From a virus, in UHGV virus genome UHGV-1464328: a stretch of DNA of 33,516 nt, one strand, 5' to 3'. Below the pieces are notes generated by a model. It was not told the DNA's origin, did no database searches, and saw only the letters and a list, made by a program, of their open reading frames with translations. Positions 78-33,516 of the stretch are shown here, piece by piece; position 1 is the stretch's first letter, and each line of letters opens with the position of its first letter. The position numbers and the translations under genes were made by a program.

Positions 78-89
78 TTGATAAATACA
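78..89 (+). promoter_or_regulatory. Late-promoter-like motif TTGATAAATACA, 18 nt upstream of the ATG at 108.
   Basis: Member of the recurring TTAATAAATAC(A) family (see findings). Followed by RBS GAGGAGG. Confidence 0.5.
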
Positions 90-107
90 CCATATAGAGG
101 AGGTTAT

Positions 108-404
108 ATGTTATTTCCATATACCAATAAGCAGAAAAAAGAATTTTTAAAACGGTTCGGGCATCCAGTTAAAATTAACGACGAACCAGAACTCGCGATA
201 GTTGAAAGAGAAATTACTAACTCTGATGGGGAAGTATCAGAGACTTTATACGTAACTATCGATCAGAAGTATAAACAAGACGATATTGTTGAGCTTGATA
301 ATACCATGTACAGAATCGCTTATATTGTCAATGACGGTTCAGGTCTTGTTGATGCTTATCTGTCTTTCCAATCAGAAGAAGGAAGGGTATCTAAATATGA
401 CTAA
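108..404 (+). CDS. Hypothetical virion/assembly protein, 98 aa. By position possibly a tail-completion or head-tail joining protein.
   Basis: ATG at 108 has a strong RBS (GAGGAGG at 95-101). The track ORF from 78 begins at an upstream TTG codon. Stop overlaps the next gene's start (ATGACTAATATG). Confidence 0.6.
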   Translation: MLFPYTNKQKKEFLKRFGHPVKINDEPELAIVEREITNSDGEVSETLYVTIDQKYKQDDIVELDNTMYRIAYIVNDGSGLVDAYLSFQSEEGRVSKYD

Positions 405-804
405 TATGCCGTCACTAGGTATTAAACGTGCCTTTGAAGAAATTATAGTTAATGAATTAAATCTGAAGTACGTACAAGATGCATTCACTACAGGTGTTAA
501 GAAAGAAGTACAGGTCATGATTAGCGGTTGGACGGAAGAATATACTCGTCCGCAGTTAAATTCTCGCGGATTAGCTGCTGAAATGAACTTAACGATCGAT
601 GTTTTTTCAGAAAATAACGAAACTGGTGTTCATGAGGCCGTTTTTAACTTAATTAAAGTTAGTCCAGTGCATCCTAAATTACTCAAGTTCAAAATTGACA
701 GAATGTTTCCTGCTAGTTCATTCACAAGCTATAACACAGAGTCTTCTAACGGCCATATCCAAGCACAAGTTTCAATAACAATCCAGTACATCATAAGGAA
801 CTAA
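397..804 (+). CDS. Hypothetical protein, 135 aa. It sits immediately upstream of the major tail protein, so it is possibly a tail terminator or head-tail connector.
   Basis: ATG at 397 follows RBS GAAGGAAGGG. The 286..804 track ORF extends upstream in-frame over the previous gene. Translationally coupled to 806. Confidence 0.55.
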   Translation: MTNMPSLGIKRAFEEIIVNELNLKYVQDAFTTGVKKEVQVMISGWTEEYTRPQLNSRGLAAEMNLTIDVFSENNETGVHEAVFNLIKVSPVHPKLLKFKIDRMFPASSFTSYNTESSNGHIQAQVSITIQYIIRN

Positions 805-805
805 A

Positions 806-1993
806 ATGGCTACAGAAAAACCAGATATTTTCGTTGGTTCATACGTTAGAGTTGCTCTTAACCGTGATACAACTTCAGAAATCCCGAGTTATTTTGACCC
901 AGGGTATATCGAGACTAAAAACTTAGCAGGTTTCCCTGAGGTTTCTTTAAGCCCAGAAGTTCAAACAGTAGAAGAATATCGTGATGATTTCGTAACTAAG
1001 TTATCAGGTGATATTAATGTTAAAGACACTCAACTTAGTGTTTTTAATGTACCAGATGACCCTGTTGTTCAAGAACTTAATGAAGCGATTATACGAAGAA
1101 CACCTCTGCGCTTTCGTAATCTATACGTGATAGACACTGAACATGGAGAAAACTCTCAGAACGGCCTTTATCACATTTTCGACGCATACGTTAAGAAAGT
1201 CACTACCTCAGGAAGTTCAGACTCTGTAGTTACTAACCATTATACACTAAGTCCTACAGGAAGGATTTTCCAAGGATTTGTGAATGTTGGAGAAATTATA
1301 CGTGAGGGTGATTACGGCGTAGGTGCAGGTACTGAAGATATTCCTGGAGTTAAAGACCTCGGGCTACTGACTGGCAATAGATGGATTACTGTCGATGCAT
1401 CACACTCTCAGAACCCATTCGGTTCTGATACTTCTGCAATGGCAATTCAACATCCTAATAATCTTGGATGGGAAATCATCGGTCAGACGGTTGGTGCGCC
1501 AGCGATCAGAATTCGTAATAAGAAACTTGAATCTGATGGTTCTGTAGAAGCGTCCAAATGGGTAAAGGTATATTCCGAAACAGACAAACCGCAAGCTGTT
1601 GATAATGATTTCGTATCTAAGAAATCTGGTGGTACTTTTACCGGAAACTTACAGATTAATTCATCTGCTCCGACTTTAGCTATGGGTTCAGAAAAACTGT
1701 GCGGATTACGTGTTGGCGGTACTAACAATGACACAATGGTTGTTGGTGGTAAAAGTGTACTGATATTCCGTACTGGTGGAAAGGGAATTGATAGCAACGC
1801 GTCTGGAATGAACGAAGTTAAGATCGATAACGCAGGAAATATAACAGCTCAGAACCAACGTATTACTGCTAATGTTTTTACTTCGGTGGCCCAGCCCACA
1901 AGTGTATCTGATTTAACACGAAAAGACTACGTTGATAATGGATTAAATAAAAAAATAAACGTAGGTGTTGAAATAGATTTTGGAACATACTAA
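806..1993 (+). CDS. Major tail (tube) protein, lambda-gpV-like N-terminal domain, 395 aa. The C-terminal extension carries a tail-fibre-repeat-like KKSGGTFTGNL motif.
   Basis: N-terminal DIFVGSYVRV resembles the V-family start (GTTLWVY). RBS AAGGAA. The N-terminal ~150 aa are paralogous to ORF 6150..6620. Position upstream of the fibre and tip genes. Confidence 0.65.
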   Translation: MATEKPDIFVGSYVRVALNRDTTSEIPSYFDPGYIETKNLAGFPEVSLSPEVQTVEEYRDDFVTKLSGDINVKDTQLSVFNVPDDPVVQELNEAIIRRTPLRFRNLYVIDTEHGENSQNGLYHIFDAYVKKVTTSGSSDSVVTNHYTLSPTGRIFQGFVNVGEIIREGDYGVGAGTEDIPGVKDLGLLTGNRWITVDASHSQNPFGSDTSAMAIQHPNNLGWEIIGQTVGAPAIRIRNKKLESDGSVEASKWVKVYSETDKPQAVDNDFVSKKSGGTFTGNLQINSSAPTLAMGSEKLCGLRVGGTNNDTMVVGGKSVLIFRTGGKGIDSNASGMNEVKIDNAGNITAQNQRITANVFTSVAQPTSVSDLTRKDYVDNGLNKKINVGVEIDFGTY

Positions 1994-2002
1994 GGAAATA
2001 AA

Positions 2003-5000
2003 ATGGCAAACGAAATTAAATTTATTCGGTTTAAACGAACCGAGACAGCTGGCCGCATTCCTACTGCTGCGCAGATAGAAATTGGTTCTGTAGCTCTTAA
2101 TATGGCCGATAAGGCCATATTTTCTAAAAATGCCGCAGGGCAAGTTGTTCAGTTCACTGGTGCCGGCGCAGATATGCCAGCTAAAACTGTTACTGCAACA
2201 GGTACTATCAAGTCAAATACTGGAGTGCAAGCTGGAAATGCTAAACTCGGTACTGACGGCAATATTACTGGTGGCTCTAAATTCGGTGGGAACTTAGATA
2301 ATTATCTGAACTCAATTAAGGGTGAGATCTCTTCTACGGATAAAGCTGCTGTTAAGAAAGCTGGTGATGTAATGACAGGTCCGTTAGTAATTAATACATC
2401 GGGTAATTCTGACCCTGCAGTAAATGGACTTTCTGTGTCTGGATCTCAACATACTCCTATTATGTTAACCCGCAACACAGATAAGAACCTCAACATAGGA
2501 TTTAAATTAACAGGCGGTTCAACTGTCATTAACCGAAAACTTGGTATTGATTCTGATGGCACTCTACACTGGGGACCTAATGATAACCAAGCTGCTAACG
2601 GGCGTGTAGTTACTCAAGATTATATTGATGACAATATAACTGAACTTAAAGGCGGTTATAGAGGTTCAGAAGTTGGGGTTGATTTAGGTGGTTGGAACGG
2701 TTCTGTTAATGACTTATTCATTGGGAACAGTGAAGACATTGGTACTGTAAGGACATGGTTCTGTGCATCAATGGCTGGTGGTAATAATATTACCGATGTA
2801 CCGGCTGGTAAAGGAAACTTTGTACTTCGTGTTGAAAGTCTTCGCGCCGCAAACGGTGTAGACTATAAAAATAAGCAAACTTTTATTAGTGGTGATGCAA
2901 GTAAAACGTACGTTCGCTATGGGGCAGGAACAGGAACAACAACCGCTCCTAAAATGAATTGGGGGCCTTGGTTAGTATCTCAAGAATTTTCTAATGGAGT
3001 TACACCTATATCTAACGGTGGTACAGGCGCTACTACTGCAGGAGATGCCCGAAATAATTTAGGTCTTAGAACTGCTGCTGTACGTGATGTTGGTGAATCT
3101 AGCGGAAACGTAATGGAAGTTGGTGCCTTTGGTATTGGTGGTGTCGGAAAATCAATAGTAGATATTACGTCTGATGTTGATTTAATGACTCGTCTTAAAG
3201 CTATTGGTGGTACAACGTTTAGAGCTAACGTTAAAACCACAGATGGCAAGCCTGTTTGGACAGGTCCAGGATTTTACTCCCATGGTTCCGGTTTTTATTC
3301 TAGGGCTGGCGATACCATGACTGCGCTTAATATAGATTACGCAACTGGTAACGTTAGAGTATTCGCTATTAATGATAGTAATCTTAACGCTGGCAAAGTA
3401 AACCATAACATGCTCTACGGTACTGCTAATAAACCTTCTAAGGATGATGTCGGACTTGGTAATCTAACAAACGATGCTCAAGTTAAGAAAGCCGGTGATA
3501 CCATGACCGGAGATTTAACTGCTCCTAATTTTCACGCTTCTGGACCGGGAACGGCATCAGTGTATGTTAATGCAGGAAGCGGAAACGCTCATGTATGGTT
3601 TAAAACAAACGCCAATGAACGCGGTGTAATTTGGGCAACTCCAAATACTTCAGATCTCGGCCAGATTAATATTCGTGCAAAAACTACTGGAGGTACTTCT
3701 GCTGGTGATTTTAGTTTCCGTTCTGATGGTCGATTTGATGTTCCTGTAGCAGTTAAAGTTGGTGGAGCAGCAATGCTAACCAAAGACGGAAACATCACCT
3801 CTGGTTCAATGTTTGACGGTAACCTTAACAACTATTTGACTTCTATTAAAAACGATATCATTGCTGGCGATAATAAGCAAGTAAGTAAAACTGGCGACAC
3901 AATGACCGGTAACTTGACTATTAACGCTAACTTAAGAGTCGAAAACCCTAATGGAACAATGGTTGATTTAGGTTCAGAGAACTCAGACAAGTACAGCAGA
4001 CTGACTCTCTCGCGTAAAGTTGGCGACGGCGCTGCTGTGGCAATGCTTAAAATTACTCCTGAAGGATACGTGCAATTTGGTTATCAAACTGCAGTTTCTA
4101 CTCCAGCTCCTACCAAGTACATCCGAGTTAAACCTGACGGTCTTGATGTAGAAGGGGATTTGGTTTTTAATCAGACATATCGTGGTTCTGAAGATGCAGT
4201 TGATATTTCTGATAAGACTATTGATCTTAATGATCTAGTTATTAAAAAAACTGGTTTAGGCACTCGTCAATTATACAAATGCATTTCTTCTGGCGGTGGT
4301 TCTAAGATAACGAATAAACCTACATCTGATGGCAACTTTGTTCTCGAAGTTCTGTCTTTGCGTAAAGTTTCTGATACTGACTGGTCGTGTAAGCAGACCT
4401 TTACTACAAAGAATAATACTACCGTTGGCACATACGTTCGCTATGCACAAAATGGTTCATGGACTGCATGGCAAGAAGTTGTATCTGGTGTTCAACCTAT
4501 TAATTTAGGTGGTACTGGAGCAACTTCTGTAGCTGCTGCCCGTAATAACCTTGGTGTTGGCGAAGGACAAACAGTATCATTCGGCAATTTAGTTACCAAC
4601 GATTTAACTGCAAACGGAAATGCTAGATTAGTTGGAAGATTGAATCTTGGTTCTACTTCTGCAACTGGCGTATTACGAGCTAATGAAGGTGGTGCGGTTG
4701 TTTTAGGTTCTGCGAGCGGTCAAAATATCCATGTTAGAGCAGGAACTCCTGATTCCTCTACAGGTGAAACCCGTTTTGAGCCAAATGGAAACGTTGTAAT
4801 TGGTGGCGCGTTGACCGCTTCTGGAAATTTACAAGTAAATGGTGAAGCCACGTTAAGTAGAAGTTTAATCGTTTCTCAAAATATAAAGAATACTAACGAT
4901 AACAGTTTTATTCTGATGGGGAAAGATTCTGATTTAGGCTTCGTCAAAAAATCTGGGTCAAGTTCTAGATTGGCATTTGCTTCAGGAAAATCATTCGTTG

Positions 5001-6097
5001 TTTCTAAATCTTCAGCAACTGCTATAAGTAATCCAGGATCAGAAACTTATACCGATGTGTTTAAAGTAGATGCTGACGGAAACCAAACAGTCTATGGAAA
5101 TTCAACAATTTCTAGGGCTTTGACAGTATCAAGCGTTATTAATGCTAATGGCGGTATCATTGTTCCTACTACTAAGTATGTGCAAATTGCTGATGCTCCG
5201 ACGCAGAATAACCAAGCTGCTAACAAAAAATATGTTGATGATCGGATTAACACCCGTTTAGCAACCGCAGGTGGTACTGTAACTGGCGATTTAAATGTTA
5301 ACGGTACTGTTGGACTTAAAGGACAAGTCGTTCTGAGTAAAGACTTAACTGTTAATAATGGCAAAATTAGTGCTCAGGCGATCGAATTATCAATGGGTAC
5401 ACCTTATATTGATTTCCATTTCAATAACAGTAGTTCAGATTACACGACGCGTCTTATTGAGAACACATCTGGGGAGCTAACCCTTGAAGGTGCATTTATG
5501 TGTAAAAAACATATGTATGCATGGGGTGCTGTGATGGCTCGAAACATAGCTCCTACGAATCCTCCTAATGGAACACTTATAACAGGTGCGCCATTACAGT
5601 CTATGACAGAAGGACGAGGCGGTAACGGAGACGCTCGGGGGCTTGTTGCTAACTTCTACTCTGAAGAGTTGGTTGGTACCTCTCATCGCGCGGTTATCTA
5701 TCTTGATGGGCATAAACGAACTGATGCATGGATTTTCAATGCTGGGGGCGTCATTGATACACCTACAGGTGCTGTTCAGACTGCAGGTTCTGATATCAGA
5801 CTGAAAAGTAATATCACTCCTGCAAAAGATGGTGCTCTGGAGCGGATCATGAAGCTCGGAACTGTAGAGTTTGACATGAAGGGCGAAACCCGTCGTCGCA
5901 GAGGTTTTATTGCTCAACAGGTTGAAAAAGTTGATGCTGGTTATACCTTTCAAGGTAATGAACAAACGATTGATGGCGAGAAAATCAAGATCTTAAACAT
6001 CGATCAGACTGCTATTGTCGCTGACTTAGTAAGTACCGTTCAGGAACAACAGAAGCTTATTCTTGAACTTCAAAAACAAATTAATACTCTGAAATAA
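2003..6097 (+). CDS. L-shaped/side tail fibre, 1364 aa, with a C-terminal peptidase-S74 intramolecular chaperone (auto-cleaving) domain.
   Basis: The C-terminal ~100 aa contain SDIRLK (a Ser-x5-Lys dyad, as in endosialidase and T5 pb1 chaperone domains). Three KKAGDxMTGxL fibre repeats. Two GGTGAT...ARNNLG motifs. Gly/Ser/Thr-rich fibre composition. Confidence 0.85.
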   Translation: MANEIKFIRFKRTETAGRIPTAAQIEIGSVALNMADKAIFSKNAAGQVVQFTGAGADMPAKTVTATGTIKSNTGVQAGNAKLGTDGNITGGSKFGGNLDNYLNSIKGEISSTDKAAVKKAGDVMTGPLVINTSGNSDPAVNGLSVSGSQHTPIMLTRNTDKNLNIGFKLTGGSTVINRKLGIDSDGTLHWGPNDNQAANGRVVTQDYIDDNITELKGGYRGSEVGVDLGGWNGSVNDLFIGNSEDIGTVRTWFCASMAGGNNITDVPAGKGNFVLRVESLRAANGVDYKNKQTFISGDASKTYVRYGAGTGTTTAPKMNWGPWLVSQEFSNGVTPISNGGTGATTAGDARNNLGLRTAAVRDVGESSGNVMEVGAFGIGGVGKSIVDITSDVDLMTRLKAIGGTTFRANVKTTDGKPVWTGPGFYSHGSGFYSRAGDTMTALNIDYATGNVRVFAINDSNLNAGKVNHNMLYGTANKPSKDDVGLGNLTNDAQVKKAGDTMTGDLTAPNFHASGPGTASVYVNAGSGNAHVWFKTNANERGVIWATPNTSDLGQINIRAKTTGGTSAGDFSFRSDGRFDVPVAVKVGGAAMLTKDGNITSGSMFDGNLNNYLTSIKNDIIAGDNKQVSKTGDTMTGNLTINANLRVENPNGTMVDLGSENSDKYSRLTLSRKVGDGAAVAMLKITPEGYVQFGYQTAVSTPAPTKYIRVKPDGLDVEGDLVFNQTYRGSEDAVDISDKTIDLNDLVIKKTGLGTRQLYKCISSGGGSKITNKPTSDGNFVLEVLSLRKVSDTDWSCKQTFTTKNNTTVGTYVRYAQNGSWTAWQEVVSGVQPINLGGTGATSVAAARNNLGVGEGQTVSFGNLVTNDLTANGNARLVGRLNLGSTSATGVLRANEGGAVVLGSASGQNIHVRAGTPDSSTGETRFEPNGNVVIGGALTASGNLQVNGEATLSRSLIVSQNIKNTNDNSFILMGKDSDLGFVKKSGSSSRLAFASGKSFVVSKSSATAISNPGSETYTDVFKVDADGNQTVYGNSTISRALTVSSVINANGGIIVPTTKYVQIADAPTQNNQAANKKYVDDRINTRLATAGGTVTGDLNVNGTVGLKGQVVLSKDLTVNNGKISAQAIELSMGTPYIDFHFNNSSSDYTTRLIENTSGELTLEGAFMCKKHMYAWGAVMARNIAPTNPPNGTLITGAPLQSMTEGRGGNGDARGLVANFYSEELVGTSHRAVIYLDGHKRTDAWIFNAGGVIDTPTGAVQTAGSDIRLKSNITPAKDGALERIMKLGTVEFDMKGETRRRRGFIAQQVEKVDAGYTFQGNEQTIDGEKIKILNIDQTAIVADLVSTVQEQQKLILELQKQINTLK

Positions 6098-6113
6098 GCC
6101 GGGAAACCGGCTT
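6096..6113 (+). terminator. Stem-loop aagccgg-GAAA-ccggctt (GNRA loop) overlapping the fibre gene stop. Weak U tract.
   Basis: Seen directly. Followed immediately by a late-like motif. Confidence 0.4.
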
Positions 6114-6123
6114 AATAAATACA
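6112..6123 (+). promoter_or_regulatory. Late-promoter-like motif TTAATAAATACA, 26 nt upstream of the ATG at 6150.
   Basis: Exact family consensus. RBS AAGGAAATAAAATG downstream. Confidence 0.55.
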
Positions 6124-6149
6124 TTTGTTCTTAAATTTAAGGAAATAAA

Positions 6150-6620
6150 ATGACTGATAAATTTGATATCTTTGCTGGCTCTTATGTCAGTGTTTACTAC
6201 AACTCTAAAGTAGATAATACCAATTTTGAATCTGATGATTTCATTGAAATCCCAGAAACTGGTGCTTTCCCTCAGACTGGTATTGAACGTGAAGTAATTA
6301 CTGCTCCTAACTATACTCACAAATATAGTCGTAAACTGGCTGGTCGTGGTTCTGTACCTGATATTGACCTGACTGTAAACTATATTCCTGAGAGTATCCA
6401 TGACCAGCTTTATAAGTTGGCTGAAGATGGTAAACGTGGACAGTTCAAAATCGTATATTGGTTAGATGCAACTAAAACGACTGGTGTTGGTAAAGTCTAT
6501 AATGGCTTCTTGAGTAACGCTACTTTCGGTGGTGGTGAGACTGAAGTTACTTCTCTGGCACTTACTTTGTCGGTAGACGGTGGTCCAGTAGCGGCTGGTG
6601 TCATTGCTCCTAGTGCTTAA
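6150..6620 (+). CDS. Tail tube-like protein, 156 aa. It is a short paralogue of the N-terminal domain of ORF 806..1993.
   Basis: N-terminal KFDIFAGSYVSV matches KPDIFVGSYVRV of 806..1993. The downstream block IEIPETGAFPQTGIEREV matches YIETKNLAGFPEVSLSPEV. Confidence 0.65.
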   Translation: MTDKFDIFAGSYVSVYYNSKVDNTNFESDDFIEIPETGAFPQTGIEREVITAPNYTHKYSRKLAGRGSVPDIDLTVNYIPESIHDQLYKLAEDGKRGQFKIVYWLDATKTTGVGKVYNGFLSNATFGGGETEVTSLALTLSVDGGPVAAGVIAPSA

Positions 6621-6634
6621 CTGTGAAAAAATTT

Positions 6635-6664
6635 AAAGGGACCTTCGGGTCCCTTTTTTGTTTT
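6635..6664 (+). terminator. Rho-independent terminator: aaagggacc-UUCG-ggtcccttt followed by a T run.
   Basis: Perfect 9-bp stem, UUCG loop, ttttttgtttt. Confidence 0.85.
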
Positions 6665-6669
6665 CCAAC

Positions 6670-6685
6670 GGTATTAAATAATACC
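6670..6685. promoter_or_regulatory. Inverted repeat GGTATTA-aa-TAATACC, 12 nt upstream of the ATG at 6697. It contains a TATTAAATAA late-motif variant.
   Basis: Seen in sequence. Resembles the TTATTAAATAC variant at 17236. Confidence 0.3.
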
Positions 6686-6696
6686 AGAGGTGAACA

Positions 6697-7110
6697 ATGT
6701 TTAAATTTCAAGCTGACTTAACAAATCTACTTAATAGATATATCGGTAAAGAACACCAGTTTGGACAGAATGATTGCAATATTCTTATTGCGGATTATCT
6801 TGATACGTTCTGTTCAACCAATTACTTATCAAAATTAAAAGGACAGTACACGTCGATTAAAGAGGGTCTTTCATGCTGTAAAGAACTGACTGGTTTTCAT
6901 AACGTTCTACAGGCATGTGAAAAACATCTTATTCGTTCTGAACAGATAAAAGACGGCTCAGTACTTTTAATTAAAAAAGAACTCAAGAAAAGAGTTTATT
7001 ACATCGCTACAGTGGTCTTTAACAATAAAGCTCTAGTCGAGCACGAAAATTATTACACGTTAGTTGATGTACAGCCCGAACAATACGAATTAGTTTTTAA
7101 TAGGAGTTAA
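6697..7110 (+). CDS. Hypothetical small tail protein, 137 aa. A Cys-His signature (QNDCNIL...GFHNV) makes it a possible NlpC/P60-like domain, like the C-terminal half of lambda gpK.
   Basis: RBS GAGGTG. Sits directly upstream of, and coupled to, the J-like gene. Confidence 0.5.
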   Translation: MFKFQADLTNLLNRYIGKEHQFGQNDCNILIADYLDTFCSTNYLSKLKGQYTSIKEGLSCCKELTGFHNVLQACEKHLIRSEQIKDGSVLLIKKELKKRVYYIATVVFNNKALVEHENYYTLVDVQPEQYELVFNRS

Positions 7111-7111
7111 T

Positions 7112-24014: not shown

Positions 24015-24016
24015 TG

Positions 24017-25441: not shown

Positions 25442-25471
25442 TATTATCTCCAGTCAATTTTTTGACATAAG

Positions 25472-25500: not shown

Positions 25501-25569
25501 GGTTATACAACACATAGTGTTAATAGAGTAATTATATCAAAGATATCTTAAAGCAAATAACCTTTAATA

Positions 25570-25715: not shown

Positions 25716-25733
25716 GCAGTACTGATTACAGAT

Positions 25734-25743
25734 ATATTTATTA
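25734..25743 (-). promoter_or_regulatory. Late-like motif on the minus strand (GTAATAAATATATC), with no ORF downstream.
   Basis: Plus-strand atatttatta. Points leftward into the repeat region and the 25472 terminator. Confidence 0.4.
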
Positions 25744-25799
25744 CACTGATTTTTCGTCTTATCGTTAGAAATTGATTTGTTCATTAATTAATCACTCTG

Positions 25800-25815
25800 C
25801 CCGGCCGAAGCCGGG
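25800..25815. other. GC hairpin cccggc-CGAA-gccggg (UUCG loop on the minus strand) in the non-coding region.
   Basis: Seen directly. Confidence 0.5.
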
Positions 25816-25973
25816 TCTTATGAGCTTAACAACAGGAGAACTACCGACGAACGGTGAACACAACCACTAAGGATTACCATAAAGGGCTCTCCGCCAAAAG
25901 AACCCTTGAGTTAATACCTATGGAATCTCAATCTTTAACAACGCTAAGGACCACCACAATCCTTGATACAATT

Positions 25974-25983
25974 ATATTTATTA
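25974..25983 (-). promoter_or_regulatory. Second minus-strand late-like motif (CCGTAATAAATATAAT) in the non-coding region.
   Basis: Plus-strand atatttatta. The extended match resembles the 31505 copy. Confidence 0.4.
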
Positions 25984-26065
25984 CGGTGTTTAGCACCCAT
26001 TTTAGATGCACTCAATCAAAACGAATAAGTGTCACGAGGTTAAGATGCAACTTCTGTCATTAGTT

Positions 26066-26235
26066 TTGACATCAGAAATTGCATTATATTTTGTGCAAGT
26101 TGTTGAGTTTTAAACACATTTCATAACTATGGGATTCAGATTATACAAATTTGACATCTCAAATACCATAGAAATTGCATAGTGCAATTTGTCCAGGAAA
26201 ATGCAATTTCTGAACTGAAAAATGCAATTTGTCCA
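26066..26235. repeat. Iteron/operator array. Five copies of AAATTGCAT / ATGCAATTT in both orientations, including the palindrome AAATTGCAtagTGCAATTT. TGCAATTTGTCCA occurs twice. TTTGACATC occurs twice.
   Basis: 26076-84, 26172-80, 26182-90, 26201-09, 26222-30. TTGACA at 26066 and 26151. Confidence 0.7.
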
Positions 26236-26398
26236 TCAAAAACAGCTACTAAGTTATTGAGATTAAAACAATTGTTGTCCCTTTAAATATAGTCTAACCT
26301 TTGTTTTCAAGTAGACTTTCAACAATGAACCACAGAAAAGTGGTCCATTATTCCAAGTAACTTTCAATACAAACTTCTAACGAAGTTCCACCAAAAAG

Positions 26399-26514
26399 AT
26401 TGTGAAACTCCGCCCGAAGGGCGGATAGACTAATAGTTTTATAAACCAATGGTGAAAAGCCAGTACAGAAACAAAGACTATCGTCGAGGCTAAAGCCTCT
26501 CCGAGTTTCACAAT
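26399..26514. other. About 116-nt element closed by a 12-bp perfect long-range inverted repeat (ATTGTGAAACTC ... GAGTTTCACAAT). It encloses two hairpins (ccgccc-gaag-ggcgg and gaggct-aa-agcctc). Candidate structured RNA or cruciform DNA site.
   Basis: Seen directly. Confidence 0.5.
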
Positions 26515-26555
26515 TGTTCTTTAACTATCTTTGTTTGAAGTACTACCAGAATTAT

Positions 26556-26627
26556 CCAGATTAAATCTGGTACCAGACTAGTTCCAGTCTTTATATTTCC
26601 ATTCCAAACCAGTTAAATCAATCTGGA
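26556..26627. repeat. CCAG-box repeats. CCAGATTAAATCTGG (7-bp arm palindrome) and CCAGTTAAATCAATCTGG about 53 bp apart. Nine CCAG in about 120 bp.
   Basis: Seen directly, about 300 bp upstream of the HNH-terminase operon. Confidence 0.6.
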
Positions 26628-26738
26628 TGCATTCCAGAACATCTAGTACAACAACCAGTTTCTATCTTGTTTCTCCACGAGCAAGCTCGTTCCGAAACGA
26701 CGCTTCGCGTCTACTTGTTATTTGCTATAAAAACTTGT

Positions 26739-26747
26739 TGGTATAAT
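26739..26747 (+). promoter_or_regulatory. Extended -10 promoter TGGTATAAT (no good -35), directed toward the HNH/terminase genes.
   Basis: Perfect TATAAT with a TGn extension. Confidence 0.4.
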
Positions 26748-26866
26748 GGTTTTAGTCCTTCCAATTAATACTAATCAGACTGGTAATAGATAGACCAGAT
26801 AGATTAGCCAACCAGATTGTGCTTTAGCACTACTTCTAGTTAAAGCAATTCCGTTCATTTCCAACG

Positions 26867-26876
26867 TAATAAATAC
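26867..26876 (+). promoter_or_regulatory. Late-promoter-like motif TAATAAATAC, 30 nt upstream of the HNH ATG at 26907.
   Basis: Family consensus. Confidence 0.5.
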
Positions 26877-26906
26877 CTGTATCAAATCAACTAACAAACA
26901 ACAGGT

Positions 26907-27413
26907 ATGAAAATGTCTAAATCTTATAACTCTATTCCATATTCTCTGGTAGAAAAGCTCTTCGTAATTGACTCATCTTCCAAAACTGGTATTGCTTGGA
27001 AAAAGAATTCCCGTCCTGCTGGTACAGTTCTTCCAAGTGGTTATTGCCAGGTTCGTGTTCCTTCTTCTGATAAGAACTTATTCGTTCATACACATCGTAT
27101 TGTATGGATGCTCGCAAATAAAAAAGACATTCCAGATAAGTCTTATCACGTTGACCATCTTGATTTTGACCGTACAAATAACCGTCCTGAAAATCTTCGT
27201 CTGATTAAACGTTATTGGAATATCACTCGTCGTCAAGATAAAAAATCTGATGGTCTTCCTTCTAATATCTACAAGAAAGCTGATGGTAATTTCTTTGCTC
27301 AGTTTAGTTTTGAGGGCAAAGGATATCGACACGATGATGAGTCAGTCCAGAAATGCCAAGAATGGTTAGATAAAAAACGTGCTGAAGTTATCGGCATAAT
27401 GGAAGAATTCTAA
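26907..27413 (+). CDS. HNH endonuclease, 168 aa. Terminase-associated (cos-cleavage helper) type, judged by its position.
   Basis: HVDHLDFDRTNNRPENLRLI is the HNH motif. Sits directly upstream of the large terminase. Confidence 0.85.
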   Translation: MKMSKSYNSIPYSLVEKLFVIDSSSKTGIAWKKNSRPAGTVLPSGYCQVRVPSSDKNLFVHTHRIVWMLANKKDIPDKSYHVDHLDFDRTNNRPENLRLIKRYWNITRRQDKKSDGLPSNIYKKADGNFFAQFSFEGKGYRHDDESVQKCQEWLDKKRAEVIGIMEEF

Positions 27414-27550
27414 TGACAACAATAATTATTGGAGCCATCGCATTCGGTGGCTTGTTTATTGCTGATTACGTCAAATTTAAACTACTTGATAAACGCCTCA
27501 AAATCGTTGAGGCGAAGCTTGGACTAAATGAACAGACAAAAACTTCTTAA
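27413..27550 (+). CDS. Small TM ORF, 45 aa (MTTIIIGAIAFGGLFIADYV...). It overlaps the HNH stop (TAATG) and the terminase start. Coding status uncertain.
   Basis: Hand-translated. Not in the ORF track (<60 aa). Confidence 0.25.
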   Translation: MTTIIIGAIAFGGLFIADYVKFKLLDKRLKIVEAKLGLNEQTKTS

Positions 27551-29438
27551 GATAATTAAAAAATCCAGACAGTTTATTCTACCGCCTCCTGATTACACTC
27601 CTTCTGAATGGGTTGAACATAATCTTATATTCCCTGATGGTCCATACGCAGGGCAACCAATGAAATTGTTTGAATTTCAGAAAGGGATGATAGATGTAGT
27701 TAAAGAACGTAAACGAAAAATTGTATTCGAGACTTCTGCCCAAATCGGCAAGACAACCATCCTGAACGGGATTTTGTTCTACAAATCTGCTAATGACCCA
27801 GGAAACGCAGGGGTACTTCAATCAACTGGTAAAGAAACAGGCCAATGGTTAGCAGGCAAGATACGCCCAATGATTGATGCATCACCAGAGATGCAGAAAA
27901 TCGTAACTGATAAGAATGACCGTAACGCAGTCAATAACGGTTCTCAGATTCAGTTAAGGACTGGTGGGTTCTGGTACTTCATGAGTTTGAACTCTCCTAG
28001 CCATCTTCGCGGTAAGACACTTCCTCTTATTCTTATGGATGAAGTGGACGCAGTTGAAACTGATACTGACGAAGGGAACCCGATCGTTATAGCTGAAAAC
28101 CGCGCAACAACGTTCGGTGAAGACGCTCGTATCTTTATTAGTTCTACGCCTACTTCTAAGCATGGAGCTATCCATACACAGTACGAAGCATCTGATAAGC
28201 GTAAGTATCACGTCCCATGTCCTAGTTGTGGTCATTATCATGAACTCATCTGGGAAAACGTTAAGTTTTCTTGGGTAAAAATTGACGGTAAGTCTGTTCC
28301 TGATACAGACAGCGTATATCTGGAATGTCCAGAATGTGGTCATCATATCTCTGATGGTGAACGAGCTAGAGCAGTTAAGAACGGGCAATGGGTGATTACT
28401 CAGCCTGACTCACGAATTGCTGGGTTCCATATCTCACGGCTATACAGCCCGATGAGTTCTTTACGCTCTGTGATGGAGGACTATAAGCAAGCGTGGCAAT
28501 CGTTCAGTTTATCAACTTTCTATAACACTGTTCTTGGCTTGCCGTTTGACGATCTAAACGAAGACGTAGAGCTATACAAGTTAGAGAAATTAAAAACCGA
28601 CGTTGGAGTGAACAACATCCCAGATGATGTGTTGTTCCTCACGGCAGGAGTTGACCAACAGCAAGACCGCTTAGAAGTTACGTTGCTCGGACACTCAGAA
28701 AAAGCTCTGTACATCATCTGTCACCGTAGCTTCATGACCATGAACGCTGAAGTTATTGAGAGCCCGGCATATAGAGATTTACTGGCATTCTTAAAGGCAC
28801 CGTTTAGAACGGTCTCTGGCCGTAGAGTAACTATGGCTTGGGCTAACGTTGACTCCGGTAATGGACGTGCAACTAAAACAATCTACAGGTTCTGTTCTCA
28901 GTGGAAGCATCTACACGCTATTAAAGGTTCAAGTTCTGTTGACGCACCTTATGTACCAACCAAAGAGTCGAAATCAGGTGGTTATCGTCTGTTTATGATT
29001 GGTGTCAACAAAGGCAAAGACCTTATCAGGGAATTGATAGTTCGTAATACGTCAACAACATTACAGACGCCTGTACATCTCGAAATATCCGATCAGGAAG
29101 TACCTGATGATTATCTTGAGCAATTAATGTCTGAAGAACTTAAACGTTCAGGTAATACAGTTCGTTGGACAGTTAAACCGGGCGGTGTACGAAATGAAGC
29201 ATTGGACTGTATTAACTATGGCTATTGTGCTCGTCTGCAAGTTATTGAACAAATCAAATGGCATGAGTGGCGGAAGATAGTTGCCAAACAGACAATCGAC
29301 GATACACCAGATGCATCAGAAACGATTGAGCCTGAACAGTTAATAGAAACCATACCTGAACAAAAAGAAACGCCTAGAAAGGCTATAGTTAAACGTAGAG
29401 TAGTAAAACCGTCTCGTCCAAGAGGTTTCGGTCTGTAA
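27528..29438 (+). CDS. Terminase large subunit, 636 aa.
   Basis: Walker A-like FETSAQIGKTT and Walker B LPLILMDEVD. Size. Flanked by the HNH and portal genes. Cys pairs CPSCGH / CPECGH. Confidence 0.9.
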   Translation: MNRQKLLKIIKKSRQFILPPPDYTPSEWVEHNLIFPDGPYAGQPMKLFEFQKGMIDVVKERKRKIVFETSAQIGKTTILNGILFYKSANDPGNAGVLQSTGKETGQWLAGKIRPMIDASPEMQKIVTDKNDRNAVNNGSQIQLRTGGFWYFMSLNSPSHLRGKTLPLILMDEVDAVETDTDEGNPIVIAENRATTFGEDARIFISSTPTSKHGAIHTQYEASDKRKYHVPCPSCGHYHELIWENVKFSWVKIDGKSVPDTDSVYLECPECGHHISDGERARAVKNGQWVITQPDSRIAGFHISRLYSPMSSLRSVMEDYKQAWQSFSLSTFYNTVLGLPFDDLNEDVELYKLEKLKTDVGVNNIPDDVLFLTAGVDQQQDRLEVTLLGHSEKALYIICHRSFMTMNAEVIESPAYRDLLAFLKAPFRTVSGRRVTMAWANVDSGNGRATKTIYRFCSQWKHLHAIKGSSSVDAPYVPTKESKSGGYRLFMIGVNKGKDLIRELIVRNTSTTLQTPVHLEISDQEVPDDYLEQLMSEELKRSGNTVRWTVKPGGVRNEALDCINYGYCARLQVIEQIKWHEWRKIVAKQTIDDTPDASETIEPEQLIETIPEQKETPRKAIVKRRVVKPSRPRGFGL

Positions 29439-29446
29439 TAAATACA
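29436..29446 (+). promoter_or_regulatory. Late-promoter-like motif TAATAAATACA, 25 nt upstream of the ATG at 29472. It overlaps the terminase stop codon.
   Basis: Family consensus. Confidence 0.5.
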
Positions 29447-29471
29447 AAAAGAAACCGGATGAGGAATTTTT

Positions 29472-29954
29472 ATGATTAAAGAAATTTTCATCGGTGAATT
29501 ACTCGAATTAACTAATCCTGCTAACGCTTCTGTTCAGATAGGTTCTAAAGAACTTGTTCTGTTCGAACAAAAACAATGCCCGAAGAATATCCGGGTAGAA
29601 ACTACTGATTTCACAGAAGGTACATTCTCTGTTGTTGTACTTAATGACGGTCAGTTAATTTCTAATGAGTTAATTAAAGTTAAATCACCGTTTATTGGGA
29701 AGACTAAAAAAGAACAACTGCGAGAAATGATTAATGACCTTGATAAAGTCATTCAGTATCGCCTGACTAATAATGAAGAAGCAATTCAACAGATGAGTAT
29801 TAACGGAAAATCTTTCGTATATGAAACTCTTGAAGCTTTGATGAACACCCGTAAGAAATTAGTAGCTAATCTGGCGAATATCATTAAGTCAGAAGACCTC
29901 GCTAAAGGGAAGTCTCCTATTTTAACAATCAAGGCAAGGTTTAGAAACGCATGA
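29472..29954 (+). CDS. Hypothetical protein, 160 aa, between the terminase and the portal.
   Basis: RBS GAGGAA. Stop overlaps the portal start (ATGA). Confidence 0.65.
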   Translation: MIKEIFIGELLELTNPANASVQIGSKELVLFEQKQCPKNIRVETTDFTEGTFSVVVLNDGQLISNELIKVKSPFIGKTKKEQLREMINDLDKVIQYRLTNNEEAIQQMSINGKSFVYETLEALMNTRKKLVANLANIIKSEDLAKGKSPILTIKARFRNA

Positions 29955-31501
29955 AATTATTCTCCAGAAAGAAAACTACTGTTAAGAAAGTAAGAAAATC
30001 ACCTAAATTGGTCATTGATAATTCAAAATCGTTTGAAAAAGGTCTTGATACTCGCCAACTTGGTCCACGTATTGACCGTTTAAGTGGTGATTTTGAAGAA
30101 AACCTAATTCGTACAGCAACTATTAACAACGAAATTCGTTCTTCAGGAGATAATCTGAGGGCGATGTCTCGCACGCTGTCAATTAATACTCCTTATGGTA
30201 AACGAGCTGTACAGTATCAGGTTGATAACGTAATTGGTGAAGGTATTAATCCGCAACCACGTATCATTGATCGTGATGGACGTCCTAAAAAAGACTTGAA
30301 CAGTCTTATTGCTGATAGTTTTGAGTACTGGGCTAGTTCTCCTAAACGATTCAGTAGAAACAAACGATTGAACTGGCGCCGTTTCCAGGAGCTAGTTGAA
30401 CGAGCTCGTGTAGTAGATGGTGAAGTGTTTATTCGCATTCACGAAGAAGTTGACTCACTTCGTATTGAACTAATTGAAGCTGCTCGCTGTAAATTCGGTG
30501 ATAGAGAAAAAACTGAAGACGGTTATATTCTCGATGGTATCGAATATGACGAAGATGATGCTCCGATTAGATATTGGTTTACTGATATCGATAAAATGAC
30601 TCAGACTGAAAAAGGTGGTTCATATTCAGTACCTGCTGAAGATATTATCCATTACTACAGAGAGTTATTCCCAGACCAACGACGCGGTATTCCTGAAGCT
30701 GTTGCAATCATCGCAACAATGAACCAATACGATGCGTTCAGTCACGCGACTTTAGTACAGAAACGTGCTGCTGCTAGTTCTATGGGTTTTATTACTCAGG
30801 ATAAAGATGGACAAGAAGATATCGACCTTGGACTTGAAGAAAAAGAGCATGATGGTGAACAACCTGATGTTATTCAAGACTTTGAGTCTGGTACTATCCA
30901 TAAACTTCCTGCTGGTCACGATATTAAACAGTTCAGCGCAACTCAAGGTGGTGATGATTTCATTAGCTTTACCGATCGATTAGAGGACCAACTTGCTATG
31001 GGTTATGGCTTCTATAAGCAAGGATGGAAAGGCGATACAGCTAATATCAACTACTCTGCTGCACGATTTGGCGATCAAGCTCAACGTAAGATGTTTAAGA
31101 CTGTTCAACAGAATTTAAAAGAACAAGTCTTTGAAGTTATCTACGAACGTTGGTTAGCGTGGGCAATTCTCAATGAGACTATCCAAGTTAAGATGACGAA
31201 TATTCCAAGCATTCTTCGTCAGACTATCTGGACATATCCAAAATGGGAAAGCATTGACCCGCTTAAAGATACTCAGAAAGACCAGCTTGATGTTGATAAT
31301 GGTTTTAAATCTGCGTCTGACGTAATTATTAGTCGTGGTGAAGACCCTGAATTGGTATTTGCTCAGATTGAACAAGAGCGTTCTCGTTATGTTCCTAAAC
31401 ACGCAAATCAAATCGATATCGCTAAAGCTCCTGCTGAGGTTACTGCTGGTGCTCAAGTAGAAGTAGCTGAGATTAATTCTGATTCAAGCACTGACGAGTA
31501 A
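29951..31501 (+). CDS. Portal protein, 516 aa.
   Basis: Size and position between TerL and the prohead protease/capsid gene. Basic N-terminus, acidic C-terminal tail. Lambda-B-like features are tentative. Confidence 0.75.
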   Translation: MKLFSRKKTTVKKVRKSPKLVIDNSKSFEKGLDTRQLGPRIDRLSGDFEENLIRTATINNEIRSSGDNLRAMSRTLSINTPYGKRAVQYQVDNVIGEGINPQPRIIDRDGRPKKDLNSLIADSFEYWASSPKRFSRNKRLNWRRFQELVERARVVDGEVFIRIHEEVDSLRIELIEAARCKFGDREKTEDGYILDGIEYDEDDAPIRYWFTDIDKMTQTEKGGSYSVPAEDIIHYYRELFPDQRRGIPEAVAIIATMNQYDAFSHATLVQKRAAASSMGFITQDKDGQEDIDLGLEEKEHDGEQPDVIQDFESGTIHKLPAGHDIKQFSATQGGDDFISFTDRLEDQLAMGYGFYKQGWKGDTANINYSAARFGDQAQRKMFKTVQQNLKEQVFEVIYERWLAWAILNETIQVKMTNIPSILRQTIWTYPKWESIDPLKDTQKDQLDVDNGFKSASDVIISRGEDPELVFAQIEQERSRYVPKHANQIDIAKAPAEVTAGAQVEVAEINSDSSTDE

Positions 31502-31504
31502 GCG

Positions 31505-31515
31505 TAATAAATATA
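31505..31515 (+). promoter_or_regulatory. Late-like motif TAATAAATATA upstream of the capsid ORF. It is followed by a hairpin before the ATG.
   Basis: Family consensus. Unusual order of motif, then hairpin, then gene. Confidence 0.4.
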
Positions 31516-31523
31516 AACATACC

Positions 31524-31549
31524 GAGCAACTTCGGTTGCTCTTTTCATT
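31524..31549 (+). terminator. Hairpin gagcaac-UUCG-gttgctc plus ttttc. It is either the portal gene terminator or a 5' leader hairpin of the capsid transcript.
   Basis: Seen directly. Confidence 0.6.
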
Positions 31550-31562
31550 CAAAGGACCAACT

Positions 31563-33516
31563 ATGTTAAAGCTCAAGCGAGAATATACGGTCCAGGAAAT
31601 TCAAGCATCTGAAGACGGTACTTATGAAATCGCTTTTAGTTCTGAAACTCCTGTAGAACGTCAAATTCAAGATGAGTATGGTCAGCCTGTTACAGTTAAT
31701 GAAATTCTTGTCCACGATGGTCCAGAAAATGCAGACCTGACTCGAATTAATAACGGTGCAGCACTTTTGTTTAACCATAATTTTGATAACCATCTGGGTA
31801 TTGTTATTCCTGGTTCTGTCCGAATTGATGCAGACCGTGTTGGTCGTGCAGTGGTTAAATTTAGTAAGCATGGCCAATTAGCTCAAGAAGTACAAGCAAA
31901 AGTCGACGAAGGGACAATTAGTAAAATCTCTTTCGGTTATGACATTAACGAATACGAACTCAAAGGTGATGACCTTATTGTTACTCATTGGGCTCCGTAT
32001 GAAATCTCTTTCGTAACTGTCCCTGCTGACGACAAAGTTGGACTTGGACGGTTAATAAATACATCTGACACAGCTTCTGCTGTAAAAATTTCAAATTCAA
32101 ATAAAGGAAACTCCCGAATGAAACGTTACGAAGAAATGTCTGTTGAAGACATCGTTGAAATGACTATTGAAGATTTAGCAGATATGTCTGTTGAAGATAT
32201 TGAAGCTCTAACTGATGAAGCTCGCGCTAAGCGTGAAGAAATTCTTGAAGAAGACAAAATTGAAGCTGAGCAAGCTGGTGATTCTGCTGTTAATGCAACT
32301 GATGATGCTCCGGCTCAAGCTCCTGCTCAAGATGAACTTTCTGAAGAAGAACGAGAAGAAGAAACCGAAGAAATTCTCGAAGTAGCAGAACGCTATAAAG
32401 TTTCTCAGAAAGAAGTTGCTAAAGCTCTGGCTCGTGGAATGACCGCTCGTCAGTTCAAACGTTCTATTAAACCTAATAAAGCTCCGGCGGTAATTCGTAA
32501 TATGCGCAAAGATAATAAAGAAACTCTCGAAAATCGTTTTGATTTAGGCGAAGCTGTTCGCTCCATGATGTCTGGTAAAGCTGTTCGCGGCGCTGCTGCT
32601 GAATATACTCAGGAAATGACTCGTAAACGTCTGGCTCGTGGTCAGAACGTAAGCACCGGTATCTATCTGCCCGTTAACGCTCTGGCTCAGAATTCTCGTG
32701 CTATCAACACCGTTCCGAGTGTTTCTGCTATCCAAGAAACTGTTCAGCGTTATGACTCTTTCGTTGAAATGCTGTTAAAAGGCACTGTAGCCGATCAGCT
32801 GGGTGTTAATTTCCTGACTGGCCTGACTACTCCGATCTCTGTTCCTAAGCAGACTAAGAGTTCTGTTGATGCATTCGGCTTCGTTGATGAAAACGGTGAA
32901 AGCCCGGAAGGTGAAAGCTCGTTCACCAACATTCAGTTCATGCCGAAAACCTTTACTGGTGGTAACCCGATTTCTCGTCAGGCTCTGCTGACCATGCCTA
33001 ATCTGGGTGCATTCATTTCTGACCATATCGTTAAACATTCTCGCGCTAAGCTGGAAGGTCTGATGTTCGGTTCTGTAACTGATGCCAAAGCTCCAGAAAG
33101 CATCATCGCTCAGCTGGTAGCTCAGAAAATGGGTATGACCTATAAAGAGTTCGTTGTTGAAGCAGCTAAAGCTAAAGGCAATGGCGTTGATATGGCTGCA
33201 TTCAAATATCTGATGCACGCTGCTCTTGAAGGTGATTTGAAAACCACTCTGCGTGATGCTGGTGTTTCTGGTTATATCATCGATGATGAAAACCGTATCG
33301 GTGGTCATGACGTTATCGGTTCTGGTCTGGTTAAAGACGGACAAGTAATCGCTGGTGATTTCTCTGCTGTTACCGTTGCAGAATGGGAAGGTCTGGCTCT
33401 TGACCTGGACGATACTACTTATCGTAATCGTGGTGCTATCGTTCCTCGCGTATGGGCTGATATCGACTGGAAAGTCTGTGCAGATGACCGTCTGTTCCTG
33501 TACGAAAAAGGTACTC
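31563..33516 (+). CDS. Prohead protease (HK97-type) / acidic scaffold-like linker / major capsid protein, one continuous ORF. It is 3'-partial and runs off the window end (at least 651 aa).
   Basis: Translated by hand with no stop in frame 0 to nt 33516. N-terminal 170 aa contain the protease-like YEISFVTVPAD motif. Then EDIEALTDEARAKREEILEEDKIEAEQ...EEEREEETEE. Then the capsid part, with strongly optimal codons (ctg, cgt, ggt). Confidence 0.8.
   Translation, partial: MLKLKREYTVQEIQASEDGTYEIAFSSETPVERQIQDEYGQPVTVNEILVHDGPENADLTRINNGAALLFNHNFDNHLGIVIPGSVRIDADRVGRAVVKFSKHGQLAQEVQAKVDEGTISKISFGYDINEYELKGDDLIVTHWAPYEISFVTVPADDKVGLGRLINTSDTASAVKISNSNKGNSRMKRYEEMSVEDIVEMTIEDLADMSVEDIEALTDEARAKREEILEEDKIEAEQAGDSAVNATDDAPAQAPAQDELSEEEREEETEEILEVAERYKVSQKEVAKALARGMTARQFKRSIKPNKAPAVIRNMRKDNKETLENRFDLGEAVRSMMSGKAVRGAAAEYTQEMTRKRLARGQNVSTGIYLPVNALAQNSRAINTVPSVSAIQETVQRYDSFVEMLLKGTVADQLGVNFLTGLTTPISVPKQTKSSVDAFGFVDENGESPEGESSFTNIQFMPKTFTGGNPISRQALLTMPNLGAFISDHIVKHSRAKLEGLMFGSVTDAKAPESIIAQLVAQKMGMTYKEFVVEAAKAKGNGVDMAAFKYLMHAALEGDLKTTLRDAGVSGYIIDDENRIGGHDVIGSGLVKDGQVIAGDFSAVTVAEWEGLALDLDDTTYRNRGAIVPRVWADIDWKVCADDRLFLYEKGT
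32052..32063 (+). promoter_or_regulatory. Internal late-like motif TTAATAAATACA inside the protease-capsid ORF (encodes R-L-I-N-T). It is 54 nt upstream of an internal RBS and ATG.
   Basis: Exact consensus. The only intragenic copy found. Confidence 0.45.
32118..33516 (+). CDS. Candidate nested in-frame product (scaffold plus major capsid protein without the protease domain), from an internal ATG with RBS AAAGGAAA. 3'-partial.
   Basis: aataaaggaaactcccgaATG at 32103-32120. Codon bias shifts to high-expression codons downstream of this point. Confidence 0.4.
   Translation, partial: MKRYEEMSVEDIVEMTIEDLADMSVEDIEALTDEARAKREEILEEDKIEAEQAGDSAVNATDDAPAQAPAQDELSEEEREEETEEILEVAERYKVSQKEVAKALARGMTARQFKRSIKPNKAPAVIRNMRKDNKETLENRFDLGEAVRSMMSGKAVRGAAAEYTQEMTRKRLARGQNVSTGIYLPVNALAQNSRAINTVPSVSAIQETVQRYDSFVEMLLKGTVADQLGVNFLTGLTTPISVPKQTKSSVDAFGFVDENGESPEGESSFTNIQFMPKTFTGGNPISRQALLTMPNLGAFISDHIVKHSRAKLEGLMFGSVTDAKAPESIIAQLVAQKMGMTYKEFVVEAAKAKGNGVDMAAFKYLMHAALEGDLKTTLRDAGVSGYIIDDENRIGGHDVIGSGLVKDGQVIAGDFSAVTVAEWEGLALDLDDTTYRNRGAIVPRVWADIDWKVCADDRLFLYEKGT

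Follow-up and report, generated by a model that had tools for sequence, protein, structure and literature searches.

Putative T4-type late promoters in a complete integrative siphovirus-like element suggest a satellite of T4-like phages

The late promoters of phage T4 are read by gp55 together with gp33 and the gp45 clamp. A motif resembling them recurs in the virus genome UHGV-1464328, a stretch of 33,516 nucleotides (nt) hereafter called the window, by which we mean the whole stretch that was analysed. Beside a lambda-like terminase, portal and J module such a motif is unexpected, as an earlier, sequence-only reading of this DNA had remarked and as we agree, and it raises the question of which factor would recognise these sites and from which genome this factor would come. 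We find that the window (1..33516) is one complete circular integrative siphovirus-like element, in which the recognisable functions are only virion, packaging, lysis and integrase, and that no cognate late factor is detectable in it. In our judgement the late factor is probably supplied in trans by an infecting T4-like phage, and the element would be an integrative satellite virus, one that has a particle of its own but needs the helper to transcribe its late genes and probably to replicate its DNA.

Alignment of the 14 sites listed in the sequence-only reading gives the consensus (C/G)(G/T)TA(A/T)TAAATA(C/T)A, or S-K-T-A-W-TAAATA-Y-A, in which the TAAATA core is invariant. All of these copies are present, including those on the minus strand and the divergent TTATTAAATA pair, with coordinates right within 1 nt; two more had been overlooked, namely a site at 6672 (+) and a weak intragenic one at 16774 (-). 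Across the 16 sites the spelling is AATAAATA in ten and GATAAATA in two, and in the other four T replaces A two bases 5' of the core (ATTAAATA in three, GTTAAATA in one). The exact 11-mer TTAATAAATAC occurs twice in the window (6112 and 32052) where 0.04 copies are expected, and with one mismatch allowed it occurs nine times on the plus strand, against 1.7 expected. The pattern T[AG][AT]TAAATA has 16 matches against 3.4±1.8, and TAATAAATA is found in 10 copies against the 0.9 expected from a second-order Markov model, an enrichment of about 10-fold. Non-coding DNA, which makes up 9.2% of the window, holds 13 of the 16 sites (binomial P ~1e-11). An unbiased scan of upstream windows returned ATAAATA as the top enriched 7-mer (9 of 37 genes; P ~1e-10), and each of the 12 genomic copies of this 7-mer is a motif site. 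At the same time, the TAAATA hexamer is rarer than chance (22 observed vs 37±6 expected), and since 16 of the 22 are motif sites, its scarcity over the genome is typical of a signal kept out of other positions.

The placement of the sites tells the same. Thirteen of them lie 17-57 nt, counted from the motif end to the start codon, 5' of a co-oriented gene, that is, 12 annotated genes and an internal start in the capsid gene; the remaining three are one weak site 100 nt 5' of a gene and two orphans. The co-orientation is strict, in that all sites having a gene nearby point toward that gene. Upstream of the motif the information content stays below 0.35 bits over -25 to -5, except at one position (0.8 bits at -21), and hence there is no -35 element. 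Most of what the sequence-only reading had described is thereby borne out: the motif stands upstream of start codons on the matching strand, the annotated genes downstream serve virion, packaging and lysis, one copy is intragenic (32052) and two are orphans (25743-, 25983-), and the motif is neither equally frequent nor unoriented in coding DNA. It behaves in a promoter-like way, being intergenic, oriented, free of a -35 element and avoided elsewhere. The remark that it usually follows a terminator hairpin was too general, because this is so at three or four sites only (clearly at 78, 6112 and 6672), whereas three others (12789, 17767 and 29436) each overlap the stop codon of the preceding gene.

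Regarding the class of promoter, the motif agrees with TATAAATA, the canonical T4 octamer, at 7 of 8 bases, and the sole differing position is -13. In T4 the octamer occupies -13 to -6, while either A or T stands at -13 in T4-like phages other than T4, and the spelling in Aeh1 is CTAAATA (PMC1524935); with this variability the AATAAATA and GATAAATA spellings of the window fall within or beside the documented range. Among the predicted late promoters of Klebsiella Jiaodavirus, AATAAATA is found in 4 of 20, for instance 5' of holin t and of gp15. The late promoters of T4-like phages (Straboviridae) further share with the window motif the single -10 element with invariant TAAATA and no -35, the position 5' of virion and lysis genes, the back-to-back divergent pairs, which occur in Jiaodavirus, in Marfa and in the E. 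coli relative as they do at 17237/17266, and a T at +5 after the octamer, which Jiaodavirus and Marfa show as TA and the window as T-R-T-A-A. They differ in that the window motif lies in a 33.5-kb integrative siphovirus-like genome in which gp55, gp33 and gp45 were not found, that the canonical octamer is absent there, and that an additional (G/T)T is conserved 5' of the core.

The relatives of the element keep the motif in place and change its spelling. In a siphovirus module recorded for Escherichia phage DCP80 (PQ671644.1; L001, L017, L018), the one related entry in a set of 50,697 phage records, the large terminase (TerL) is 50% identical and the gene order is the same, and gtTATAAATAa, the TATAAATA spelling, stands at the orthologous positions, including the internal capsid promoter with its MKRYE start. 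Unlike the window, this module has the canonical spelling, shows no integrase and sits in a scrambled T-even assembly. For the E. coli L3Cip3 element and relatives from IMG/VR the spelling at the same positions is CTAAATA / C(A)TAAATA, CATAAATA or ACTAAATA. The TAAATA core and the positions are kept across the family, and the 5' spelling is lineage-specific. The label "T4-late-like" given by the sequence-only reading therefore stands, on the seven shared bases, the published variants at -13 and the TATAAATA spelling at orthologous sites of a relative co-assembled with T-even DNA. The best explanation of these sequences is that the motif represents about 14-16 putative late promoters of gp55 type, with the single -10-region element (G/T)TA(A/T)TAAATA(C/T), heading essentially every head, tail, packaging and lysis operon.

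Where the factor could be encoded depends on whether the window is complete. In a related contig the first 200 nt of the window directly continue its last 200 nt, and the capsid gene spans the junction (31563 onward to 26), which makes the window a closed genome of 33,516 bp. Assemblies of isolates show the same gene set with host genes on both flanks, joined at a single attP core (15260..15270), which was located from the switch of identity to the integrated copies between the two host junctions. Two contigs from metagenomes, 33.5 and 34.9 kb long, carry the closed attP junction and so represent the excised form. The flanking DNA and the names of the proteins identify Klebsiella quasipneumoniae, K. 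pneumoniae, K. variicola, K. oxytoca, K. michiganensis and Raoultella as hosts, and the remoter relatives reside in Enterobacter hormaechei and E. coli; a profile search of genome contigs with the TerL alignment gave no match. In Klebsiella the element joins host DNA at the feaR / aldehyde dehydrogenase locus, and the E. coli relative does so at ybiT/ldtB. We also observed that the same host flank (an ApbA-like gene, then a gene for a 499-amino-acid (aa) aldehyde dehydrogenase) adjoins, depending on the strain, either the integrase end of the element or the end with the 56-aa gene (L013/L014 vs L020/L022), which implies insertion in both orientations at one site and is unusual for a serine integrase. 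A sigma-like factor encoded outside the window, as the sequence-only reading had supposed, is not compatible with a circular, complete genome whose integrated copies are bounded by host genes. With nothing outside the window and no cognate factor found in it, the factor comes either from another genome, i.e. a helper phage, or from an element protein that cannot be recognised.

The search for such factors, which the sequence-only reading had proposed for gp55/gp33-like and alternative sigma genes, was negative. By tblastn none of gp55, gp33, gp45, MotA, AsiA and RpbA was found in the window or in 40 related loci (41 family sequences including the window), and PHROGs, Pfam, NCBIfam and PADLOC showed no sigma factor, replication protein, repressor or late activator in the window. 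Likewise, no Q/Ogr-like gene was found, and the immunity repressor, the replication module and the late activator or antiterminator of an autonomous lambda-like temperate siphovirus were not detected by PHROGs, Pfam or NCBIfam. The genes that the window has in common with both the complete E. coli element (L016) and the DCP80 module are confined to virion, packaging and lysis functions and endonuclease VII, and the serine integrase is common to the window and L016 only. The non-structural unannotated proteins (176, 128, 56, 209, 136, 248, 286, 57, 55 and 46 aa) are without exception absent from both L016 and DCP80, whereas the promoter core is kept. With phage satellites the element shares the integrated state, with an integrase and defined att sites. 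No replication, late-regulator or repressor gene is detectable by homology, and none is conserved across the family, though genes lacking recognisable homology may have escaped these searches.

These negative results leave room for an autonomous temperate siphovirus, in which host RNA polymerase would read the motif with the aid of a late factor encoded by the element and devoid of detectable similarity to gp55 or known activators, and replication would be carried out by host functions or an unrecognised initiator; we consider this unlikely, though it is the main rival. About 15 open reading frames (ORFs) are unannotated, and Pfam, NCBIfam, PADLOC and PHROGs gave nothing useful on their proteins. 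The 248-aa and 286-aa proteins had no tblastn match in phages, the AlphaFold model of the latter is mediocre (pLDDT 69) and matches no PDB fold at E <= 0.001, and the only helix-turn-helix (HTH) candidate is a lineage-specific 57-aa ORF. The 176-aa gene that accompanies the integrase, the 56/128-aa genes and the 136-aa gene are not behind the motif and could be early genes, and the excised circular form exists in metagenomes in which the presence of a helper is unproven. Autonomy is weakened because no non-structural unannotated protein is common to the window, the E. coli element and the DCP80 module, though the promoter core and positions are conserved in all three. Moreover, the spellings used by the family (TATAAATA, AATAAATA and CTAAATA) are those documented for gp55-type promoters, and the composition and part of the gene content of the element resemble those of T4-like phages.

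This resemblance is seen first in base composition. The G+C content of the element is 38.8%, which is 22 points under that of the host flanks (~61%) and close to the 39.6-41.6% of Jiaodavirus, Marfavirus and Slopekvirus. Its endonuclease VII and the gp49 of Straboviridae are about 45% identical, and there is a weak, sub-threshold match to T4 Cef. In the fibre gene a stretch of 2.2 kb (3017-5241) shows 85% DNA identity to gp37 of about 190 T4-like phages of Klebsiella (Jiaodavirus); megablast of the rest of the element against the 50,697 phage records gave no DNA match, so this segment alone is shared and there is no close phage relative. Relatives swap the fibre cassette, with gp36 and gp38 domains, and gp38-like adhesins in some of them. 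There is also a 395-aa protein (806-1993), whose first 150 residues are paralogous to the 156-aa tail-tube-like protein encoded at 6150-6620 (26% identity, E 1e-10) and whose C-terminus matches the long-tail-fibre hinge-connector family, its orthologues in relatives matching Pfam Phage_T4_gp36. It looks like a fusion of a tube protein and a fibre connector, by which the gp37-like fibre would be attached to a siphovirus tail.

On the reading that we prefer, a helper-dependent satellite, events would run as follows. In the lysogen only the integrase operon, from its sigma-70 promoter, and perhaps a few accessory genes would be expressed. Infection by a T4-like phage (Straboviridae) would bring gp55, gp33 and gp45 and redirect host RNA polymerase to promoters with the TAAATA core, by which the morphogenetic, lysis and accessory operons of the element would be switched on in trans. 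The element would excise, its DNA would be copied by the replisome of the helper, branches would be resolved by its own gp49-like endonuclease VII, and it would package itself with its own lambda-type terminase. The resulting siphovirus particles would bear T-even-type distal tail fibres. For induction by a helper there are circumstantial hints, namely the contigs with the excised attP form from two metagenomes and the co-assembly of the DCP80 module with a T-even genome. A wider form of this proposal, to which we give an even chance, takes the whole family in Klebsiella, Raoultella, Enterobacter and E. coli as integrative "satellite siphoviruses", obligate hyperparasites of lytic T4-like phages. 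Its members would carry only virion, packaging and lysis genes plus an integrase, with every operon under a gp55-type promoter spelled (TATAAATA, AATAAATA or CTAAATA) to suit the helper lineage. They would be replicated by the helper replisome, would borrow gp36/37/38 fibre tips and so adsorb to the same cells as the helper, and would possibly keep anti-helper or abortive-infection cargo (HEPN-like, TIR) behind the same promoters.

A different answer to the opening question is that the motif is an unusual -10 element of host sigma-70, or of another host sigma, read by unmodified host RNA polymerase. The motif is indeed A+T-rich with TA-rich hexamers, and a perfect TATAAT follows the site at 12791. 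However, a sigma-70 scan called none of the motif sites, and sigma-70-like promoters are significantly depleted in the window, with 29 against 51±7 and 30 against 49±6 expected, i.e. about 60% of the shuffle expectation. There is a single strong one, at 15227..15254 (-) with TTTACA-16-TGnTATAAT (11/12, with TG extension), which drives the serine integrase (13680-15197) and the 176-aa gene. The motif has neither a -35 nor a TG extension, its TAAATA lacks the conserved -7 T of the sigma-70 hexamer (TATAAT), and constitutive expression of lysis and virion genes from a prophage would kill the host. We therefore regard a host promoter as improbable.

The view of the sequence-only reading, by which the window is only part of a larger siphovirus genome related to T4 and gp55 and gp33 lie elsewhere, has one record in its favour, since DCP80 sets a related module beside T-even genes including gp55, gp33 and gp45. 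The DCP80 entry is a 141-kb "complete genome" filed under Gaprivervirus, and the siphovirus module occupies about 30 kb of it. In this record rIIA is present three times, and primase and each exonuclease subunit gene twice, together with a 164-aa terminase piece, truncated T4 structural genes and isolated T4 head, sheath and fibre genes, and these duplications and truncations mark it as an assembly chimera. In addition, the end of the window joins its start, integrated copies with the same gene set are host-flanked at one attP core, and the 33.5-34.9 kb metagenome contigs carry the closed attP junction, so that a fragment is very improbable. Still less credible is that the motif arose by chance in A+T-rich intergenic DNA or that it serves some purpose other than transcription, such as RNA processing or protein binding, for although the intergenic DNA is A+T-rich and two copies have no downstream gene, TAATAAATA is 10-fold above the second-order Markov model with TAAATA depleted elsewhere, orientation is strict with variable spacing to start codons, and the position is kept with altered spelling in relatives of only 50% TerL protein identity.

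Several points weigh against a T4-like helper. The canonical octamer TATAAATA has no copy in the window, where 2.7 are expected. No helper whose preferred spelling matches the window was found among the Klebsiella T4-like genera sampled (Jiaodavirus, Marfavirus and Slopekvirus), which mostly use TATAAATA, and a helper search by promoter spelling found no Klebsiella phage group preferring TAATAAATA; Slopekvirus, once considered as a user of CTAAATA, was dropped since its head and tail genes mostly carry TATAAATA. The DCP80 module is absent from complete E. coli genomes, and we rejected DCP80 as proof of co-packaging because the record is too scrambled. One of the ORFs with no recognisable function could be a non-homologous late activator or replication initiator, and the promoter activity of the motif is deduced from its sequence. 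T-even phages break down cytosine DNA and, through Alc, prevent it from being transcribed. This attack is one that a resident element would need to escape, and no mechanism for it is evident.

The organisation of the genes around the sites is as follows. For packaging and head the element encodes a Nu1-like small terminase (TerS), an HNH protein, a lambda gpA-type TerL, a portal and a fusion of S78 protease with HK97 capsid protein; for the tail, two tail-tube-like proteins, chaperones, a tape measure, Dit-like and further tail proteins and a J-like tip protein; and, apart from these, a T4 e-like lysozyme, the gp49-like endonuclease VII, a gp36/gp37-type fibre pair and the serine integrase. 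From the window start onward, the TGATAAATA site at 79..87 (+) lies 21 nt 5' of a 98-aa gene (108-404) and follows a terminator hairpin at 42-59. The TAATAAATA site at 6113..6121 (+), with the hairpin GCCGGGAAACCGGC immediately upstream, is 29 nt 5' of the 156-aa tail-tube-like gene (6150), and the TATTAAATA site at 6672..6680 (+), preceded by a terminator at 6635-6656, is 17 nt 5' of a DUF6950 gene (6697) that heads the J-like tail-tip operon. Next comes TAATAAATA at 12789..12797 (+), over the stop codon of a 179-aa gene and 25 nt 5' of a 104-aa gene (12822). Within the Dit-like gene, TGTTAAATA at 16766..16774 (-) is a weak and doubtful variant 100 nt 5' of a 219-aa tail gene. The divergent back-to-back TATTAAATA pair (17237..17266) faces the T4 e-like lysozyme gene (17284) with its plus-strand member (17237-45) and the Dit-like tail gene (17226) with its minus-strand member (17258-66). 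Over the lysozyme stop codon lies TGATAAATA at 17767..17775 (+), 30 nt 5' of the tail-chaperone / tape-measure operon (17805).

In the packaging and head part all sites have the TAATAAATA spelling: 22230..22238 (+), 50 nt 5' of the small terminase gene (22288); 26867..26875 (+), 38 nt 5' of an operon of HNH, 45-aa and large terminase genes; 29436..29444 (+), over the TerL stop codon and 28 nt 5' of a 160-aa head-tail gene followed by the portal gene; and 31505..31513 (+), 50 nt 5' of the protease-major capsid fusion gene (31563, wrapping to 26). The last encodes the S78 protease and the HK97-type capsid protein as one 659-aa ORF across the window ends (31563-33516, on to 1-26). Between the 31505 site and its start there is a G+C-rich hairpin with a T-run (31524-31541), which could be a leader attenuator or a stabiliser. 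Inside the gene, just past the protease domain, the TAATAAATA site at 32053..32061 (+) lies 57 nt 5' of an internal ribosome-binding site and ATG (32118, MKRYE..., codon 186), from which a protease-less capsid or scaffold product would be made.

Another TAATAAATA site, 24376..24384 (-), stands 26 nt 5' of a lineage-specific operon that encodes, in this order, proteins of 46 aa, 68 aa (Zn-ribbon), 55 aa and 248 aa. The last of these (22830-23576, -) contains, as seen by eye, an R-x4-H motif (RNIMVH) and is HEPN-like, this motif being typical of HEPN RNases, and the E. coli relative has a TIR-domain gene in its place. PADLOC, run on the window including this protein, gave no match; the 248-aa gene and its TIR counterpart may be defence or anti-helper cargo.

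The two orphans, both TAATAAATA, belong to a 1.4-kb non-coding region (25505-26912), the length of which differs among near-identical relatives. They form a direct repeat with a spacing of 240 bp, one at 25735..25743 (-) and the other at 25975..25983 (-). From the former a structured RNA of about 250 nt (z = -3.6) is predicted to extend to a terminator at 25500-25485 (-), upstream of the 57-aa HTH gene. Repeats of the AAATTGCA/TGCAATTT type occupy 26064-26241. Over 25320-26912 the window is 99.8% identical to the Logan isolate contigs (L003/L009), while the 34.9-kb ENA contig (L004 1-1593) gives only partial matches of about 92%. In a block kept in all close relatives, TGCTTTA-12-TATAAT (25555-25531, minus strand) is a perfect T4 MotA-box middle-promoter pattern; the scan of the window for MotA boxes gave 2 matches against about 1 expected, which is not significant, and this match is a lead only. 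Rfam and tRNA scans of the window returned no matches. Candidate roles of the region are cos site, origin, non-coding RNA locus and promoter decoy.

T-even-type phages are the best-studied lytic phages and common in therapy cocktails, and they are regarded as hard to parasitise since they destroy host DNA and rewire transcription. If the proposal is true, it describes a new split between satellite and helper, in which the satellite brings the whole virion and the helper brings transcription specificity and probably replication, and mimicry of the promoters of an alternative sigma factor serves as a device for both sensing and hijacking. In practice, Klebsiella strains with such elements could contaminate lysates of therapeutic T4-like phages or lower their yield, and genes could spread in siphovirus particles with the host range of the therapeutic phage. 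In the literature that we searched there was no T4-dependent satellite and no description of this element family.

Among known systems, the phage-inducible chromosomal islands that form capsids (cf-PICIs) and the phage-inducible chromosomal island-like elements (PLEs) of Vibrio cholerae are integrated, respond to phage infection and package their own DNA, and a PLE exploits a large lytic helper (PMC12772148). Unlike the window element, cf-PICIs have no tail genes and carry replication and regulatory modules themselves, PLEs lack virion genes, and neither is known to use gp55-type promoters; the window element has a full tail module (tube, tape measure, Dit, J-like, fibres) with no pri-rep or alpA-like gene found, and is not a cf-PICI by these features. 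The Streptomyces satellite viruses MulchMansion and MiniFlayer have their own encapsidation and virion genes and lack key replication genes (PMC10690885). They resemble the window element also in a genome adapted to the helper, in codon usage there and in G+C content and promoters here. They differ in host phylum and helper type, as the helper of the window element would be a large lytic myovirus, and no helper-type promoter set is reported for them; the two are likened by description only.

The satellite P4 has the late promoters Psid and PLL, which are activated by Ogr of its helper P2. As proposed for the window element, the late genes of a resident integrative element are there tied to the late-transcription factor of a helper, and they consequently fire only with an active helper. 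P4 has its own replication (alpha) and activator (delta) and uses the capsid and tail of the helper, whereas the window element is the reverse, with its own virion and no detected replication or regulatory genes. Helper-activated satellites as such are known; late genes tied to the T4-type sigma-factor promoters of a helper in a virion-encoding satellite would, if true, be a novel division of labour.

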